The position numbers were made by a program, and so were the translations under genes. Below the pieces are notes generated by a model that was not told the origin of the DNA, searched no databases, and saw only the letters and a program-made list of their open reading frames with translations. From positions 1 to 53,250 of the forward strand of contig JANODG010000003.1 in assembly GCA_031412575.1 (NCBI GenBank): 53,250 nucleotides of DNA, written 5' to 3'. The stretch comes from Bdellovibrionales bacterium. Lineage in GTDB: Bacteria > Bdellovibrionota > Bdellovibrionia > Bdellovibrionales > UBA1609. Positions 2,723 through 16,595 of the stretch are shown piece after piece (position 1 is the stretch's first letter; each line of letters opens with the position of its first letter).

Positions 2723-3268
2723 TCAAACCTGTACAGATATCTTTTTCCAATGATTTTTAAAATTATCTAAATATTCTTCACGTTTTCTGTACCCCCTTTG
2801 TCTTTCGATACGATTCGCTTGAAAGTAAGCCTTAAGCCCTAACATTTCAAAAGACGAAGTCAGCACCCTTGTAAACACTAATCCATCCCAGAATTTACCG
2901 AACTTAAATCCTTTTCTAGCTTTAGTGATTTTTCGGGCTAAAAGCGCGGAAAATGTTCTTAGGAAGTTTTTAAAAAATATTGGGTTTTTGAATCTTACTT
3001 TTAAATGCAAATGATTACCCATGTTTACAAAATCTAAGATTTCTATGAAATATTTTTTTGATCTTTCTTGCAGAACTGACTTTACTAAAAGTCGGTTTTT
3101 GTAAAAACTTAAATTATCTTTAGCTTTTGAAGACTTAAAAACCACGTGTGTGATTTTGCCGGGTACGATTGGACGCGCAACTTTTCGTTTAGATTTTTTA
3201 AGTACACCACCATGAGATAGCATCTTAAAAGACTTTAATTTATTTTTTGGGTCAAGACTCAATTGCAT
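2723..3268 (-). CDS. IS200/IS605-superfamily (COG1943) HUH Y1 transposase-like protein, RAYT-like
   Basis: HUH motif in GNHLHLKV, preceded by ITHVVFKS. FWDGLVFTRV and the C-terminal tyrosine motif YFQANRIE match the layout of single-domain Y1 transposases and REP-associated tyrosine transposases. No IS ends are evident in the flanks. Confidence 0.6.
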   Translation of the reverse strand: MQLSLDPKNKLKSFKMLSHGGVLKKSKRKVARPIVPGKITHVVFKSSKAKDNLSFYKNRLLVKSVLQERSKKYFIEILDFVNMGNHLHLKVRFKNPIFFKNFLRTFSALLARKITKARKGFKFGKFWDGLVFTRVLTSSFEMLGLKAYFQANRIERQRGYRKREEYLDNFKNHWKKISVQV

Positions 3269-8621: not shown

Positions 8622-9191
8622 TCATAAAAACTTTTGTTCTACAATATATCTCCAAGGCAATAGCGCATCTTCTTCCGCGTAACCAATCCCGATTCTTGGG
8701 GTTGCAGTGTAATTTAATTTTCGTCCATGGTCTTCAAACCAGATGTACTGACTTTCATAAAGTTTATCCCCATTATGATTTACTTTTATTCCCAAGGCCT
8801 GACTTAATTTCCCAGGTCCCGAGGCCAGATCCTGAGATCCTTTTCGTCTTGAGCTTTGGATCTTTAATCCTTCATAAGGTAATACGGCACGGACTAAAAC
8901 AGCCTGTGGCCAATCTTTGGGGCCAGTGATGATATTGAATAAGTGGTGTATCCCGTAACATAGATAAATGTAAGCAAGTCCACCTTCTTCATAAAAAATC
9001 TCAGTTCGCGGAGTTCTTTTTTCCTTGTAGGCATGACAAGCTTTATCTTTAAACCCGCAATAAGCTTCTGTCTCGATAATGATTCCAGATGTATATTGCC
9101 CATCGAAGTTCGTGACTAAGGTTTTACCTAACAGCTTTTGGGCGACTTCATTGACATCTGGATTTTCGAAAAAATGTTTATCAAGTCTCAT
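8622..9191 (-). CDS. mpg: 3-methyladenine (alkylpurine) DNA glycosylase, AAG/Mpg family
   Basis: VAQKLLGKTLV, IIETEAYCG, HAYKEKRTPRTEIFY, GLAYIYLCYGIHHLFNI, VLVRAV and GPGKLSQALGI match the Mpg family along the full length. Confidence 0.9.
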   Translation of the reverse strand: MRLDKHFFENPDVNEVAQKLLGKTLVTNFDGQYTSGIIIETEAYCGFKDKACHAYKEKRTPRTEIFYEEGGLAYIYLCYGIHHLFNIITGPKDWPQAVLVRAVLPYEGLKIQSSRRKGSQDLASGPGKLSQALGIKVNHNGDKLYESQYIWFEDHGRKLNYTATPRIGIGYAEEDALLPWRYIVEQKFL

Positions 9192-9219
9192 GTAAATTTA
9201 GCGCTTTTCCAAAAGAATA

Positions 9220-11876
9220 TTACCCAAGTTTTGCATAAAAATCTTTCCACGGGTCCACTTTTTGTGTTTTTACACGTTTGATCACTTCGGGTATACTAAA
9301 AATTTGAGGGTTTAAATTTTCGTGAACTTCGTTCCAAAACAAGGGCACCGCGACTGGTGCTCCTTCTCTGGCACGAGTGGAATAATTTAATACTGAGGTC
9401 GCCGATTTTGAATTTCTTAAGTAATCGATAAAAATTTTATTCTTCCGTAATTTTAAACTTGAATTCGTAAGATACATATCAGGTTTTGAATCGACCAAAA
9501 TTTTTGCAATGTTTAGCGAGAATTTTTTGGCTTCAGCCCAACCCATACCTTCAACATGAGATAATACATGTAAACCCTTACCGCCGGTTGTCCGAACAAA
9601 CGATTCAAGACCATGTTGTTTTAATATTAATCGAATTATGTGCGCCGTTAATGTCACTGAACTGAATTTTACCCCAGGACCTGGATCAATATCCCACACC
9701 ACATATTGTGGACGATCGGTGTCATGGATAGCGCAATTCCAAGCATGGAACTCCAAAGCTCCAAGTTGAACCATAGATGCAAGATCATCAAAAGAATCAA
9801 AGTAGGAGTAAGGCTTTTTTCCGCTCGATGTTTTTATTTTCGTTTGAAGTGGATGGCCATCATCTGGATCAACATGTTTCTGAAAAAAACAAGTTTTAGA
9901 TTTTCCCCGAGGACAACGTAAGTAACTTAGTGGACGTCTTAAACCCATTTTTTTAAATTCAGGAAAAACTAAGTGGTAATAATCCAATAGATCTTTTTTA
10001 GTGAGTTTAATCTCTTCATAAAAGACGCGCTCAGGATTAGAAAGAATCACTGAAGTTTCATAAGTATTTTGTTGGCTCTTTTCGTTTCCGATATTCATTT
10101 TTTCAATTTTCACGTTAGATTTTAGTCCCTGGGATTTTTTTGGTTTTGAATTTAATTTTTTAGCTTCATAGAATTTATCAGCCCGAAGACCAAGGAATAC
10201 AGGATGGCGAAGTTTCTTTTCTCTACTTTTTTCTGTATAGCGAATCTCTGCAAAGAAATTAGGCTTGATAAAATGAGCAGATTTTTCATCACAGTTTTTT
10301 GCAGGACACTCTTTAATTTTAAGTTTGGAAATTTTCTTAAAAATTGAACTTAATTTTTGATCGTCAAAACCCGTGCCTACTTTACCTCTATAGTGTAGTT
10401 CACCGTCTATTTCCTCAGCCAACAGTAAGGCTCCAAAAAAATCGCGATGACCTTGCGGTTCCGTCCAGCCAATAACGACGTATTCTTCACGGTGACCACA
10501 CTTTAACTTTAACCAGTTTTGCGATCGACTTTGTTGATACGGTGAATGCTTATGTTTTAAGATGACACCTTCATGACCTTCGTCACAAAGTCGATCAAGA
10601 AGTTTTTCCGTCCATTCAAACTCTTCAGAGACTGAAATAACCGGGTTTTCATTATCTTGATTTATTTCTAAAAATAACGCATTTAGTATTTGTCTGCGGA
10701 CATTTTGTTCTAAATGGATGAGTGAATAATGATCCATATAAAAAATATCAAACACTTTAAATGCAAGGCGCGCGACTTCACCATCTTTTAAATAGCCTTG
10801 TAAAGTTTGGAAGCTTTCTCTAGGTGATGGTTTAATTTTAGAATTTGGTTCCGTGGATCGTACAGTTTTACTTCTAGTTTTTTTGACCACGGAAGTTTTT
10901 TTATCATAAGCTATAATTTCACCATCGATGACAATTTGTTCAACTGGTAAGTTTTCAACAGCCTTTTTAATAGGTAAAAACTTTGAGCTCCAGTCGTGCC
11001 CGTTTCTGGTATAGAGATAAACCGAACTTTTTTTTTAAATGCTAAAATGCGATAACCGTCGTACTTGTGCTCGACCGTCCAATCTTTCATATCCAAAGGC
11101 GCTACTTCAGTCAAAGTCGCTAACTGAGGTTTTAATGTTTTAGGAAATTTTGAAGGTTTTAATTGTAAGCATGTACCAAAATCTTTATCAGTACTTTTTT
11201 GATGATCAATGTGTTTTTCGGTTTTTTTGTGAGTGTTTCTTTCGGTTTCTATAATTTCGCTTTCGTCATCTACAAAGTCTTTAAATTGGCGACCTGTGGC
11301 TACGCTGGTTTGCCAAGCTAAACTTATATATGAATCTGAATTAGGGTTTGAATCCAATTTTATCTTTTCAGACCAACCCTCAATGGCATATTTGTCTTTT
11401 TCTTTCACTAAAAGCCATGGCGATTTTGTTGATTTACTTTTTTTATCACCTTTCATTTTAATCAAATTCCAAATGCCTCTTAGCCTTATGCCTTTCATGT
11501 AAAACTTTAGATGACCTTTTTCCAAAGCGACCTTCACGTTTTTAACTAAGGGGCGCCATGTTCCCACATCCCACATCATGGATGGACCAGCGCCATAAGT
11601 GACTTCAGGGATCACACCTTCAAAAGATTTATATTCCACGGGGTGATCTTCCGTTTTAACAGCTAAACGTTTATCTTTTGGATCGAAGGAGGGACCTTTA
11701 GGAACAGCCCATGACAAAAGCACACCTTGCCATTGAAGCCTTAAATCAAAATGTAATCTTTTGGCATCATGGAAATGAATCATAAAATCTTTAGACAGGG
11801 ATTTTGAAGCTGTACCCTTTGGTTCAGACGTTTTTAAAAAATTTCTTTTTTCGTTATAAGAACTTAGTTTTTTCAT
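9220..11876 (-). pseudogene. ligD: Multidomain ATP-dependent DNA ligase LigD (phosphoesterase-ligase-polymerase), split into two ORFs by a frameshift in an A9 run
   Basis: ORF 10911-11876 carries the PE domain (HFHDAKRLHFDLRLQ, WAVPKGPS) and ligase motif I (EHKYDGYR). It goes out of frame right after ILAFKKK. Shifting one base in the A9 tract gives ...KKSSVYLYTRNGHDWSSKFLPIKKAVENLPVEQIVIDGEIIAYD..., which is continuous with ORF 9220-10890. That ORF holds the rest of the ligase/OB domains plus the primase-polymerase domain (DIDPGPG, TTGGKGLHV, IFIDYLRN). Confidence 0.85.
11028..11036 (-). other. A9 homopolymer (T9 on plus strand) at the ligD frameshift point
   Basis: Minus strand reads GCA TTT AAA AAA AAA GTT. 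The downstream frame is closed by TAA immediately 5' of the run, so the two frames can only be joined within these 9 nt. Confidence 0.85.
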
Positions 11877-11969
11877 AAGCAGTAACCCTTCATAGGTTTA
11901 ATTTTTTAAGCGTTTTAAATGAGTAAACTCATCTTTTTTTCGCCAACTATATTCCCTTGATTATTCAAG

Positions 11970-12782
11970 CTACCTGGCTTTATTAATTTTCAAACTTTTT
12001 TCAAGAAGTTCAGTGATATTGATCACATTACTTTTTGGAGTTTCGATAGTTTCTGATTTTTTAGATTTAGAGGTCTTCTTTGAAGATTTCTTTCGGCTTA
12101 AACTCTTTACGTATTTTTTCAAAGCCACTTTGTATTCGTCTTTGAACTCTTCGGGACTCCAAGCACTAGACAAAGAATCCACTAAATCACTGGCAAGCTT
12201 TTGTTCCTTAGTCGAGATCCTTACAGCTTTTACATCTTTGATAAATTCAAATTCAGATAAATCTTTTAAGTCTGGTTTAAATCTCAACAGATTTAAAATA
12301 AGTGCATTTCCCTCTGCAATGATAGCCCCTAAGTGTTCACGGGTCTTTATTGTGACTTTACCTAACGCCGCCTTTTTTTTAGATTCCAAAGTTTTGTATA
12401 ATAAGGAATAGCTTTTTTCGGCTTTTTTGCCAGGAGCTAATACATAAGGCTTATCAAAGTAGTAATAGGGAATTTCCTCGACATCAACAAACTCCGTCAA
12501 TTCTATAGTTTGTGTGGACTTAAGTTGAATACCTTTTAAAGTTTCTTTATCGAGTGTGAGATAAACATCTTCCGAAATTTTATAACCCTTTGTGATATTC
12601 TTCCAAGGCACTTCTTTGCCTGTGTCTGCATTAATCTTTTTATACTGAATTCTTGCCTGGTCGCGACCATCAATCATATTAAGATCAATATTATCTTTTG
12701 TGTTTTGCATTGATAATAATTCAATAGGTATATTAATCAAACCAAAACTTATATTGCCATCCCATATTGCTCTTGCCATCAA
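11970..12782 (-). CDS. ku: Non-homologous end-joining protein Ku
   Basis: N-terminus MARAIWDGNISFGLINIPIELLS and a Lys-rich C-terminal tail (KKSSKKTSKSKK) are typical of bacterial Ku. The gene is adjacent to ligD. Confidence 0.9.
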   Translation of the reverse strand: MMARAIWDGNISFGLINIPIELLSMQNTKDNIDLNMIDGRDQARIQYKKINADTGKEVPWKNITKGYKISEDVYLTLDKETLKGIQLKSTQTIELTEFVDVEEIPYYYFDKPYVLAPGKKAEKSYSLLYKTLESKKKAALGKVTIKTREHLGAIIAEGNALILNLLRFKPDLKDLSEFEFIKDVKAVRISTKEQKLASDLVDSLSSAWSPEEFKDEYKVALKKYVKSLSRKKSSKKTSKSKKSETIETPKSNVINITELLEKSLKINKAR

Positions 12783-12952
12783 AAGAATATAGCAGCAAAT
12801 TATTTAAACTAGTTTCATTTAATATATATAGAATGTGTAGATAAAAACACATTTAAGGTTTTAGTGTTTTTAATCCTGAATTTTAGAATGAAAAATGTTA
12901 CACTTTATAACTCGTAGTACTAATATTTTTTATAGTAAAAGAAGGATTCATT

Positions 12953-13468
12953 ATGATTAAACCAAGTTTAAATGCAGGTGCATTATCGGGCGTTATCGCA
13001 ACTTTTCCGATGAGTGTTGTGATGTTGGCTGGAAAAAGAATATTCCCGAAAACGATTGACAACATTCCACCTGAATCTGTGGCCAAATCTATTTTGGACA
13101 AATCAAGTTTAAATACAGAAACCTTAGAAAAAACTAAATTAGTTGAGCCTATTGTTTGGAGCAGTCACTTCGCCTATGGCATGGCTGCAGGTTCAATGTA
13201 TCCTTTATATAGATCTATATTACCAACAAAAGTAAGCGAGATAAAAGCTGGAGCGTCTTATGGGCTTTTAGTTTGGGCCGCTAGTTATTGGGGTTGGTTG
13301 CCGGCAACACACGTTTTACCAGCTCCTCAGGAAACAAAGGCTTCAGATAACGTCACTAGAATTGTTTCCCATGTTGTATGGGGTGCGGTTTTGGGATTAT
13401 GTTTTAATCTTTTAAGAAGTAAGGTTGAAAAAATTGAACCCTTAAAAGGAAAAGAAAAGTATTTTTAG
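12953..13468 (+). CDS. Hypothetical integral membrane protein
   Basis: 171-aa ORF with several hydrophobic helices (GALSGVIATFPMSVVMLAG, LLVWAASYWGWL, VVWGAVLGLCFNLL). Divergent from ku. Confidence 0.5.
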   Translation: MIKPSLNAGALSGVIATFPMSVVMLAGKRIFPKTIDNIPPESVAKSILDKSSLNTETLEKTKLVEPIVWSSHFAYGMAAGSMYPLYRSILPTKVSEIKAGASYGLLVWAASYWGWLPATHVLPAPQETKASDNVTRIVSHVVWGAVLGLCFNLLRSKVEKIEPLKGKEKYF

Positions 13469-14620: not shown

Positions 14621-14860
14621 ATCCCTATTTAACGACTTTCAAACCCAAAAGACAATTCTAGACCCAAACGAAACAAAGCCAAAAACCCAAACCAAAATAC
14701 TCACCCATCAAATCAAAATCCCAAAAAAACAAAAACCACCTAGACCAAACTCCTAAACTCCCATCCGGCCACAAAAAAATTTAATATTCCCCGAAATCCC
14801 TAATCCTAGAACGGAAGTAAAAGAAATCTTACATCTGTTGAAATTGAATTTTGTCCTTGG

Positions 14861-15076
14861 GTTTTGTTGGGCTTGGGTTTTGTGAGAGTTTGATTTAGCT
14901 TATAGATATATTTCTGAGTTCGGATTGGCGTGCAGTTTGCCCTATGAATAAAAAAAGAGGAACCATTTGGTTCCTCTTTTTTTATTCACTACGTACAAGC
15001 GCATGCCAACCGCATGTCTGAAGAAATAAATCTATAAGCTAAATCAAACTCTCACAAAACCCAAGCCCAACAAAAC
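14861..15076. repeat. 216-bp palindromic element (MITE/REPIN-like) with perfect 46-bp terminal inverted repeats
   Basis: 14861-14906 (GTTTTGTTGGGCTTGGGTTTTGTGAGAGTTTGATTTAGCTTATAGA) is the exact reverse complement of 15031-15076, checked base by base. Imperfect pairing continues inward to a central hairpin. Confidence 0.85.
14950..14983. terminator. Bidirectional intrinsic-terminator-like hairpin
   Basis: AAAAAAAGAGGAACCA-TT-TGGTTCCTCTTTTTTT. The GC core is GAGGAACC/GGTTCCTC, with an A7 run on one side and a T7 run on the other, so a U-tract follows the stem on either strand. It lies at the centre of the palindromic element between murD and ftsW. Confidence 0.7.
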
Positions 15077-15090
15077 TCACAGAACAAAGC

Positions 15091-16476
15091 CTATTTCAAC
15101 TGACGAACGATTTCTTTAAAATAGTTCCCACGTTCACGATAGTCATCAAACATATCAAAGCTCGAAGCCCCTGGTGATAACAGAACAGTGTCGTTGATTC
15201 TAGATTTTGAATAGGCCATGTGAACAGCTTCATCAAAAGTTCCAATCAAGAAAGTTTCACTGTAATCGCCAATGTCTCTGTTGATTTTTTCTTTCACTTC
15301 ACCGTAAAGAATCAAAGTTTTAACTTTCTTTCTAATTTCGTCTTTTAGCGGTGCGTAGTTCAAACTTGTGTCCTTACCACCCATGACTAAAATGATATTT
15401 TCATCAAAGGCTTTAAGTGCGCGCATAACTGCATGCACATTAGTCGCTTTAGAGTCGTTGTAAAATTCAACGCCACCAACTTTTCTGACGTACTCAAGAC
15501 GATGTTCAATACCAGTAAAAGAATCAATCACTTCTTGAATGGCTTCATGGGTTGCTCCATGTTCACGTACCGCAAGAATAGCCGCCATCATATTTTCAAT
15601 GGCATGAAATCCACGAAGCTTGATGTTTTTTACAGAAAACACTTCGATGTCTGGACCTGTTCTGACTTTAATTTCGTCGTTGATTTGAACAGCACCACCA
15701 ATGTTCATGATTTGCGGCTCTAAAGATGATTTTCTAGAAAAATAATAAATCACACCTCTTTGCACTGCCGGGTCACGAGCTAACTCAACCACCGCATTGT
15801 CATCGGCATTTAAGATGCTTGATGTTTCAGAACTCGTGTTAAGAAAAATCTTTCTTTTGGCATTGATGTAATCTTCCATAGATTTATGACGATCTAAATG
15901 GTTTTCCGCTAAGTTCATAAAGACAATATTTTTTGGTGCGAATTCTACAACATGTTCAAGCATAAAACTTGAAGCTTCAACGATCAACACATCTGCTTTT
16001 TGGTCTTCGTTGAAATACGTCACCATTGGTTTTCCGTAATTTCCACCAACCCAAACTTTTTTACCAGACTTTTGAAGCATTTCATGAATTAAAGATACAG
16101 TCGTTGTTTTACCGTTAGTCCCAGTCACAGCGATAATTGGCTCTTGCACGAAGCGAGAAGCGAATTCAAATTCCCCTGTCACTTGTACACCATTGCTTTT
16201 CGCATAATCGAAAATTTTAAGTTGCGGAGAAATTCCTGGGCTTAAAATAATTAAGTCTTGCTGCAAAAATATTTTAGGTGAATGATTTCCTAAATCAAAA
16301 TTGATTTGTAGGTCTTCAATTTCTTCTAAGTGATTAGCTAATTCTGCTTTTGATTTGTGATCGCTCACTGTAACAACAGCACCATTTTTAACTAAAAATC
16401 TAGCTAGGGAAACCCCGGTCTTTGCTAAACCAACAATAAGAATTTTTTTATCTTTTAATTCTGCTAAACTGTGCAT
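15091..16476 (-). CDS. murD: UDP-N-acetylmuramoylalanine--D-glutamate ligase
   Basis: N-terminal Rossmann motif (ILIVGLAKTGVS) and the Mur ligase P-loop VTGTNGKTTTVSL. dcw position. Confidence 0.95.
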   Translation of the reverse strand: MHSLAELKDKKILIVGLAKTGVSLARFLVKNGAVVTVSDHKSKAELANHLEEIEDLQINFDLGNHSPKIFLQQDLIILSPGISPQLKIFDYAKSNGVQVTGEFEFASRFVQEPIIAVTGTNGKTTTVSLIHEMLQKSGKKVWVGGNYGKPMVTYFNEDQKADVLIVEASSFMLEHVVEFAPKNIVFMNLAENHLDRHKSMEDYINAKRKIFLNTSSETSSILNADDNAVVELARDPAVQRGVIYYFSRKSSLEPQIMNIGGAVQINDEIKVRTGPDIEVFSVKNIKLRGFHAIENMMAAILAVREHGATHEAIQEVIDSFTGIEHRLEYVRKVGGVEFYNDSKATNVHAVMRALKAFDENIILVMGGKDTSLNYAPLKDEIRKKVKTLILYGEVKEKINRDIGDYSETFLIGTFDEAVHMAYSKSRINDTVLLSPGASSFDMFDDYRERGNYFKEIVRQLK

Positions 16477-16570: not shown

Positions 16571-16595
16571 ATTCAGATAAATTATTTATCTGAAT
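16571..16595. promoter_or_regulatory. Perfect 25-bp palindrome in the mraY-murD spacer (candidate operator or RNA hairpin)
   Basis: ATTCAGATAAAT-T-ATTTATCTGAAT: 12 of 12 positions pair around a single central base. Confidence 0.3.

Follow-up and report, generated by a model that had tools for sequence, protein, structure and literature searches.

A 298-bp palindrome between murD and ftsW as a probable local fold-back product in a Bdellovibrionales genome rich in long palindromes

Bacterial chromosomes normally rid themselves of long palindromes. In the bacteria considered here dozens of them persist per genome, each mirroring a gene end beside a hairpin. One lies between murD and ftsW of a Bdellovibrionales bacterium, in a window (the whole stretch of DNA analysed) of 53,250 nucleotides. 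It raises the question of what such a structure is and how it came about: whether it is a copy of a mobile repeat, a selected RNA device, an error of assembly or a structure made on the spot from the sequence of the locus itself.

The murD–ftsW palindrome and its neighbouring genes

In the window murD is followed by ftsW, both on the minus strand, and sense runs from high to low coordinates (Table 1). The 470-nt spacer between them is the longest of the dcw cluster. MurD is 96% identical to its orthologue in the sister species G004, and its C-terminus, KEIVRQLK followed by the stop codon, has equal length and nearly equal residues in G001–G004 and G007. A search for closer relatives returned the exact MurD protein in no other record, and the best metagenome contigs were at most 77% identical. 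The leader of ftsW contains a box, TTTGGTCTAGGT (14738–14749), that is shared with G004 (score 30 versus 20.3 ± 2.5 in shuffles, reached in 0/300), and a promoter-like site, TTGGCT-16-TAGAAT, running from 14682 down to 14655, which is a consensus match only. The same leader is strongly enriched in G/T and poor in C on its sense strand and carries short repeats of the TTGGG type.

Table 1. Coordinates of the features of the murD–ftsW locus in the window, and of the family-3 repeat copies elsewhere (contig:positions)
Feature	Coordinates	Strand	Remarks
murD, UDP-N-acetylmuramoylalanine-D-glutamate ligase, 461 aa	15091..16476	-	Pfam MurD-like_N, Mur_ligase_M, Mur_ligase_C
murD stop codon	15091-15093	-	
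Gene-side (original) arm	15022..15117	-	15091-15117, last 9 murD codons; 15031-15076, exact 46-bp block
Centre	14907..15030	-	Two poorly pairing boxes of ~40 nt (14907-14944, 14989-15030) around the perfect hairpin
Perfect central hairpin, 21-nt arms	14945..14988	-	A7, GAGGAACC, 4-nt loop, GGTTCCTC, U7; same reading on both strands
Far (copied) arm	14820..14915	-	14820-14846, decayed inverted copy of the last 9 murD codons; 14861-14906, exact 46-bp block
Native spacer upstream of ftsW	14621..14819	-	Sense strand G/T-rich; leader box and promoter-like site
ftsW, FtsW/RodA/SpoVE family, 372 aa	13502..14620	-	Pfam FTSW_RODA_SPOVE, E = 4e-93
Family-3 repeat copies, G000	C155:13908-13973, C63:17675-17740, C130:5373-5438, C116:9630-9695		
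Family-3 repeat copies, G000 (further)	C48:4917-4983, C206:17531-17596, C141:14715-14772, C127:35313-35368		

A preliminary description of this DNA had reported a near-perfect palindrome of 216 bp between the two genes. The palindrome is real, but that length is too short: the full element measures 298 bp (14820–15117), with ungapped complementarity between 14820–14915 and 15022–15117 over 96 nt (86%). When re-checked, the two 46-bp inverted repeats at 14861–14906 and 15031–15076 proved exact, as described, and the imperfect inner pairing and the central A7-GAGGAACC/GGTTCCTC-T7 hairpin at 14950–14983 are present as well. In ungapped mirror pairing the element is a mosaic, in which the outer 41 nt match at 29/41 positions, the next block at 46/46, the inner boxes poorly and the centre perfectly; the inner boxes score 12/38, a count lowered by indels, and about 55–60% from a reading of the sequence. 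The mismatches are significantly clustered, as they are in 69/79 palindromes of the genome. Within the distal arm there is also a 16-nt tandem unit (14851–14866 and 14867–14882).

The outermost part of the distal arm (14820–14846) mirrors the last nine murD codons, stop included, at 22/27 positions in register (P = 1.4e-9). Since the MurD C-terminus is conserved among relatives in both sequence and length, the coding arm is the ancestral one. Judged from these alignments, the distal arm is shown to be a local inverted duplicate of host sequence, namely the end of murD and its 3′ UTR. The terminal repeat of a transposon cannot account for such a copy.

A single-copy element without the marks of a mobile repeat

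The preliminary description had likened this architecture to a MITE or REPIN and had pointed to a RAYT-like gene 12 kb away. Under such a reading, a classical non-autonomous element with terminal inverted repeats would have been moved in trans, one candidate being the product of the Y1/RAYT-like gene at 2723–3268, and the palindromic build, the borderline Y1_Tnp open reading frame at that distance and the richness of the genome in repeated palindromic cores are all in its favour. The element is, however, single-copy, which the preliminary description had itself named as evidence against mobility. Blastn against the 3.0-Mb genome of 254 contigs (G000) returned only the self-match; short-word blastn with the arms, the centre and the spacer added nothing but chance 12–19-mers to the self-hits; and DNA searches of 60 relatives and of 109 family genomes gave no match beyond short generic A7/T7 hairpin hits. 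No direct repeat that could be a target-site duplication flanks either candidate pair of ends (14820/15117 or 14861/15076), and the outer arm is conserved host coding sequence. Moreover, the repeat families of this genome share their centre and never their termini, which is the opposite of a MITE.

The proposed link to a RAYT likewise did not hold up. The open reading frame at 2723–3268 barely exceeds the cut-off as a Y1_Tnp match (23.4 versus 23 bits), two palindrome-rich genomes of the same genus, G002 and G003, lack homologues of it, and G001 has six Y1 copies yet no long palindrome in the 137 kb sampled. Thus neither the copy number, nor conserved termini with target duplication, nor a co-occurring transposase marks the element as a MITE or REPIN. 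We regard this reading as already largely refuted and its probability as very low. The Y1_Tnp-like gene itself, on the minus strand and IS200-like, has the GNAT/ddl genes on one side and ftsQ on the other; this genome has one copy, some relatives (G001, G005, G019 and G052) have 6–14, and G002 and G003 have none.

Known families of short palindromic repeats (REP/BIME/REPIN, ERIC, Correia and Rickettsia palindromic elements) resemble the element in being intergenic, hairpin-forming and located beside stop codons, and the repeated cores in the other palindromes of this genome extend the likeness. They differ in that the murD–ftsW element is single-copy, and in that the known families conserve the ends and make no inverted duplicates of host flanks, whereas the families of this genome keep the centre and have ends that are locus-specific mirror copies of host sequence. 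Searches of Rfam, with the locus at E ≤ 1 and with 20 other palindromes at the gathering and E ≤ 0.01 thresholds, brought up nothing but generic hairpin models of plant and animal miRNA precursors, with scores far under the threshold.

A class of palindromes with mirrored gene ends

When the genome was compared by blastn with its own reverse complement, 109 palindromic regions emerged, 79 of at least 100 bp and 61 of at least 200 bp, the longest being 731 bp. The palindromes of at least 100 bp fall into families of 26, 15, 8, 6, 4, 4, 2 and 2 members and 12 singletons, the murD–ftsW palindrome being among the latter. A repeated core flanked by unique, locus-specific arms (32–226 nt, median 71.5) was found in 52 palindromes; median complementarity is 0.92 between the arms and only 0.64 within the cores, which are thus asymmetric, and what the members of a family share is the centre and not the ends. 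The best-defined example is the family-3 core, a discrete 66-nt unit with sharp ends, of which all eight full copies (Table 1) lie exactly central in unique arms and none is naked. This asymmetric repeat consists of TGGATCGATGGCATGAAGCCTTGC, a variable apical hairpin with compensatory changes and GCAAGGCGAATGACAGTCGCTTCTCCA; it matches no Rfam family and is almost confined to this species, the 1.12 Mb of G004 giving a single strong hit. The murD–ftsW palindrome has the locus-specific arms and the inverted gene 3′ end of this class; its centre lacks a repeated asymmetric core, but the layout of box, hairpin and box is nonetheless present.

The palindromes are strongly associated with gene ends. 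Their junctions are convergent in 32 cases, co-directional in 27 and divergent in one, against expectations of 9.6, 40.9 and 9.5 (p = 1e-14), and a gene 3′ end lies within 100 nt of 68 of the 79. By crude open reading frame calls, 35 of the 79 overlap a 3′ coding end by at least 9 nt, six of them on both sides. In these six convergent gene pairs (for example C85:1445-1890, C229:12176-12906, C158:18308-18750 and C16:31131-31375 of G000), the last 9 nt or more, and up to 123 nt, of both genes lie in opposite arms of one palindrome, so that two C-termini are encoded by mutually reverse-complementary DNA; one gene end of each such pair has probably been rewritten.

Several other ideas about the class were considered and set aside. 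Stepwise outward growth of terminators was rejected, as long continuous coreless stems are rare and the outer thirds of the arms pair worse than the inner parts (0.865 versus 0.93). Arm divergence (~8%) is comparable to the divergence between nearest copies of the cores (~13%), and therefore a single event followed by decay suffices and concerted evolution is not a necessity. A G/T-rich 5′ arm, which looked significant among the co-directional cases (20/25), was dropped as a marker of polarity, being a strand-symmetric property that disappears over all 79 palindromes (44 versus 33, p = 0.25). In the literature that we searched, bacterial repeats whose centre is conserved and whose arms mirror host gene ends are not described.

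Could such structures be fold-back chimeras produced by a short-read metagenome assembler? The genome is a metagenome-assembled one in 254 contigs, and 15 of the 109 palindromic hits lie at contig ends. On the other hand, the arms of the murD–ftsW palindrome are imperfect and contain indels, a typical read would be longer than either of its perfect blocks (46 and 44 bp), and the contig runs on into a syntenic ftsW whose leader has the box shared with G004. Other assemblies contain the class as well: the five-contig assembly of G003, an independent one with a 986-kb contig, has 13 palindromes per 400 kb, 10 of the 13 beside a gene 3′ end, and others were found in G002 (10 per 200 kb), in G004 and in two genomes of other genera, G029 (4 per 200 kb) and G007 (1 per 200 kb). 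None was found in 731 kb of dcw loci from other phyla or in a shuffled copy of the genome. An artefact is thus an unlikely explanation of the murD–ftsW palindrome, and we give it next to no weight. Palindromes at contig ends (such as C48:4814-5086, C80:15001-15260, C160:10257-10493, C235:1-281 and C149:1-204) either break short-read assembly or are in part fold-back artefacts themselves, and should not be taken for firm members of the class.

Empty sites and a different palindrome in the sister species

In the 1.12 Mb sampled from G004, whose flanking DNA is 75–80% identical to that of this genome, we found 40 palindromes of at least 100 bp, the same density as here. Both flanks of 22 palindromes of this genome are contained in the G004 sample, and for many of them G004 has an empty site with a gap of 14–140 bp. 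At about nine of these empty sites the homology enters the arm by 10–41 nt on the side of the gene 3′ end only, and G004 has no mirrored copy on the opposite side. These empty orthologous sites identify the gene-side arm as the ancestral one. At C153_23545_24109, for instance, the 11 conserved codons that close the upstream gene form the start of the left arm, and an inverted copy of them forms the end of the right arm; inverted gene-end copies at C153_23545 and at C43_1949 were confirmed against empty G004 sites.

In the murD–ftsW slot itself G001 and G003 have short hairpins only. In G004 the slot holds a different palindrome of ~390 nt, which starts inside the last murD codons and is built on family-3-like cores, and where palindromes occupy the same site in the two species only pieces of the core are in common. 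The arms of the murD–ftsW palindrome align with the spacers of these three relatives no better than shuffles do, the far arm being without a counterpart there, and only the ftsW-proximal box is conserved. The G004 palindrome (L018, G004:C14, about 555–960) is nested, its family-3-like core being split at the apical loop by a second such core with unique arms of its own, of ~50 nt; these inner arms are predicted by neither simple model.

A proposed fold-back origin around a putative terminator centre

We propose that the murD–ftsW feature is a locally made palindrome and not a copy of a mobile repeat, and that it originated by fold-back around a terminator centre; we put the probability of this reading at roughly 60%. 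The last 27 nt of murD and ~100 nt of its 3′ UTR would have been copied in inverted orientation beyond the hairpin-bearing centre (14907–15030), giving the order of murD end and 3′ UTR, centre and mirror copy, followed by the native ftsW leader. For this to happen, a strand, nascent or resected, with its end at or past the hairpin may have snapped back on itself at the DNA level, been extended along its own upstream sequence, by intrastrand template switching or self-primed synthesis, and then rejoined the chromosome. Later patchy correction by template switching could have left the perfect 46-bp and 44-bp blocks among decayed segments. The same construction recurs ~80 times in the genome, and in sister genomes too, mostly around repeated asymmetric cores. 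At murD–ftsW the register and polarity of the copy are shown, and empty alleles are shown at other loci, the spacers of G001, G003 and G004 being unalignable with the murD–ftsW arms.

An RNA-mediated variant, snap-back reverse transcription, was rejected: no RVT_1 reverse transcriptase gene was found in G000, G001, G003 or G004, which favours the DNA route. Template switching at inverted repeats is established in bacteria (PMC5941160), and so are fold-back inversions through single-strand hairpins in yeast (PMC7467729). The products of quasi-palindrome template switching and fold-back duplication (the Ripley model, the thyA and rpsL hotspots of E. coli, and yeast; PMC5941160, PMC7467729) resemble the present case in having an inverted copy in register with a hairpin and patches of perfect complementarity among diverged ones, and in arising at the DNA level with no dedicated element. 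They differ in extent, as the cases known in bacteria involve a few to a few tens of bases and here 130 bp including coding sequence are concerned, and in frequency, as a genome here has fixed the same outcome ~80 times, in most cases at the 3′ end of a gene.

Lack of the SbcCD hairpin nuclease may be what allows the lineage to keep such palindromes. SbcD (TIGR00619) is missing here and in 30/31 Bdellovibrionales relatives and present in 13/14 control genomes. Work from the laboratory of D. Leach reportedly found long palindromes to be inviable in E. coli unless SbcCD is removed, and the occurrence of long palindromes alongside the absence of SbcD in this lineage is in keeping with that. The parallel is incomplete, in that other genera of the order are also without SbcD and G007, sampled at low density, has few palindromes. 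We therefore treat the loss of SbcD as a permissive background, its link to the palindromes being a correlation only.

A rival reading takes the 124-nt centre (14907–15030) for a mobile core of which a single copy exists, inserted downstream of murD, with arms formed by the same insertion-coupled process as at the repeated cores. The architecture is that of the 52 core-bearing palindromes, with an asymmetric centre, an apical hairpin and better-paired unique arms; all eight full family-3 cores are armed; family-3-like cores occupy the same slot in G004; and long coreless hairpins are rare in the genome. Against this, the centre has no second copy in the genome or in the 109 family genomes apart from generic A7/T7 hairpin hits, the family-3 profile gives no nhmmer hit in this contig (C3) even at E ≤ 10, and no transposase is linked to the element, the Y1_Tnp-like gene failing to co-vary with the palindromes. 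An orphan core is, in our judgement, rather unlikely. The notion that a family-3 core lies hidden in the centre was dropped, given the missing nhmmer hit and a shared word, TTGGCATG, that is not significant.

There is a counter-point to fold-back at the level of the class: a simple fold-back at the hairpin of a core should leave that core symmetric, yet the cores stay asymmetric. That asymmetric cores always occur with arms (8/8 in family 3) suggests a more specific, coupled mechanism. We tentatively consider, as a possibility to which we give clearly less than even odds, that the Pseudobdellovibrionaceae have a dedicated way of making palindromes. A hairpin, either a small mobile asymmetric core or, as here, a centre bearing a terminator, would integrate along with an inverted copy of the neighbouring gene end, made in a self-primed, rolling-hairpin-like manner, in a form of transposition or repair that gives inverted instead of direct target duplications, and the murD–ftsW palindrome would be a product with an orphan centre.

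As a coreless case the murD–ftsW palindrome is the informative one, for it shows that arms can be built without any repeated core. This sets a constraint: either any stable hairpin can seed arms, or single-copy cores exist. If a specific mechanism underlies the class, it would be a novel way for genomes to change, through inverted duplication of the target, and the lineage would offer a natural system for palindrome formation and tolerance without SbcCD. In practical terms, such palindromes disrupt assembly from short reads and may pass for MITEs or small-RNA genes.

Terminator, transcription and the fold of the RNA

An intrinsic terminator had been proposed at the tip of the palindrome, and the sequence agrees with this prediction, a GC-rich stem–loop followed by a U-tract being present downstream of the stop codon. 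The putative terminator, canonical in form, has an 8-bp GC-rich stem, GAGGAACC-AAAU-GGUUCCUC, followed by U7 (−12.5 kcal/mol), and lies 103 nt after the murD stop; the whole 44-mer central hairpin folds at −27.3 kcal/mol. A consensus terminator scanner missed it because the scanner extends the stem through the A/T runs. The only other strong intergenic hairpin of the dcw region is at 16571–16595, a perfect AT-rich hairpin with an 11-bp stem in the mraY–murD spacer, which is itself unusually long (161 nt).

The central A7-stem-U7 hairpin is thus the predicted intrinsic terminator of a murE-murF-mraY-murD transcript. The promoter-like site and the conserved box of the ftsW leader suggest that ftsW has a start of its own, and ftsW is probably read from a promoter in this leader. 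The hairpin resembles terminators of the bidirectional type in its 8-bp GC-rich stem, 4-nt loop, U7 tail and matching upstream A7 at 103 nt past the stop. It differs from ordinary intrinsic terminators in being embedded in a 298-bp palindrome, and from bidirectional ones in that both flanking genes point the same way, so that two-way symmetry has no obvious purpose.

The preliminary description had also envisaged a long double-stranded stem in the murD transcript, as a site of attenuation or of cleavage by RNase III that falls exactly between two essential dcw genes. The predicted RNA fold does include a stem of ~140 bp, but this would arise in read-through RNA only, because terminated transcripts never include the 3′ arm. 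RNase III (rnc) is encoded in the genome and could cut the modelled stem of a read-through transcript. As for the placement, the palindrome is located between these genes as claimed, but the genome-wide rule of palindromes at gene 3′ ends explains its position better.

Could the stem nonetheless have evolved or been kept by selection to uncouple the expression of murD and ftsW, through RNase III processing or attenuation? Apart from the terminator at its tip and the presence of RNase III, this idea draws on a very stable fold (−167 kcal/mol versus −63 ± 5 in shuffles, z = −20.6), on hairpins in the murD–ftsW spacer of 4/4 genus relatives examined and on the better pairing of the inner, non-coding parts of the arms as compared with the outer ones. 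However, the two strands fold equally well (sense −166.8 and antisense −165.6 kcal/mol) without any strand bias of G–U pairs, the arms lack conservation between species even where the site is shared, and terminated transcripts would be without the 3′ arm. Moreover, ~80 other palindromes follow unrelated genes, which argues for a mutational process and not for regulation specific to the dcw cluster. Since both strands fold alike, there is no pointer to selection at the level of RNA, which we rejected on this ground, and we consider a selected regulatory device improbable. Palindromes of this kind probably do set operon boundaries, here within an otherwise conserved dcw cluster.

The cluster shows one further peculiarity. 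Its genes (murE, murF, mraY, murD, ftsW ... murG, murC, murB, ddl and ftsQ, all on the minus strand) are interrupted between ftsW and murG by a block at 8622–13468 of the window that encodes DUF1440 (on the plus strand), Ku, a LigD phosphoesterase, a LigD ligase with primase-polymerase and a methylpurine DNA glycosylase, and an end-joining repair module within a dcw cluster is unusual.
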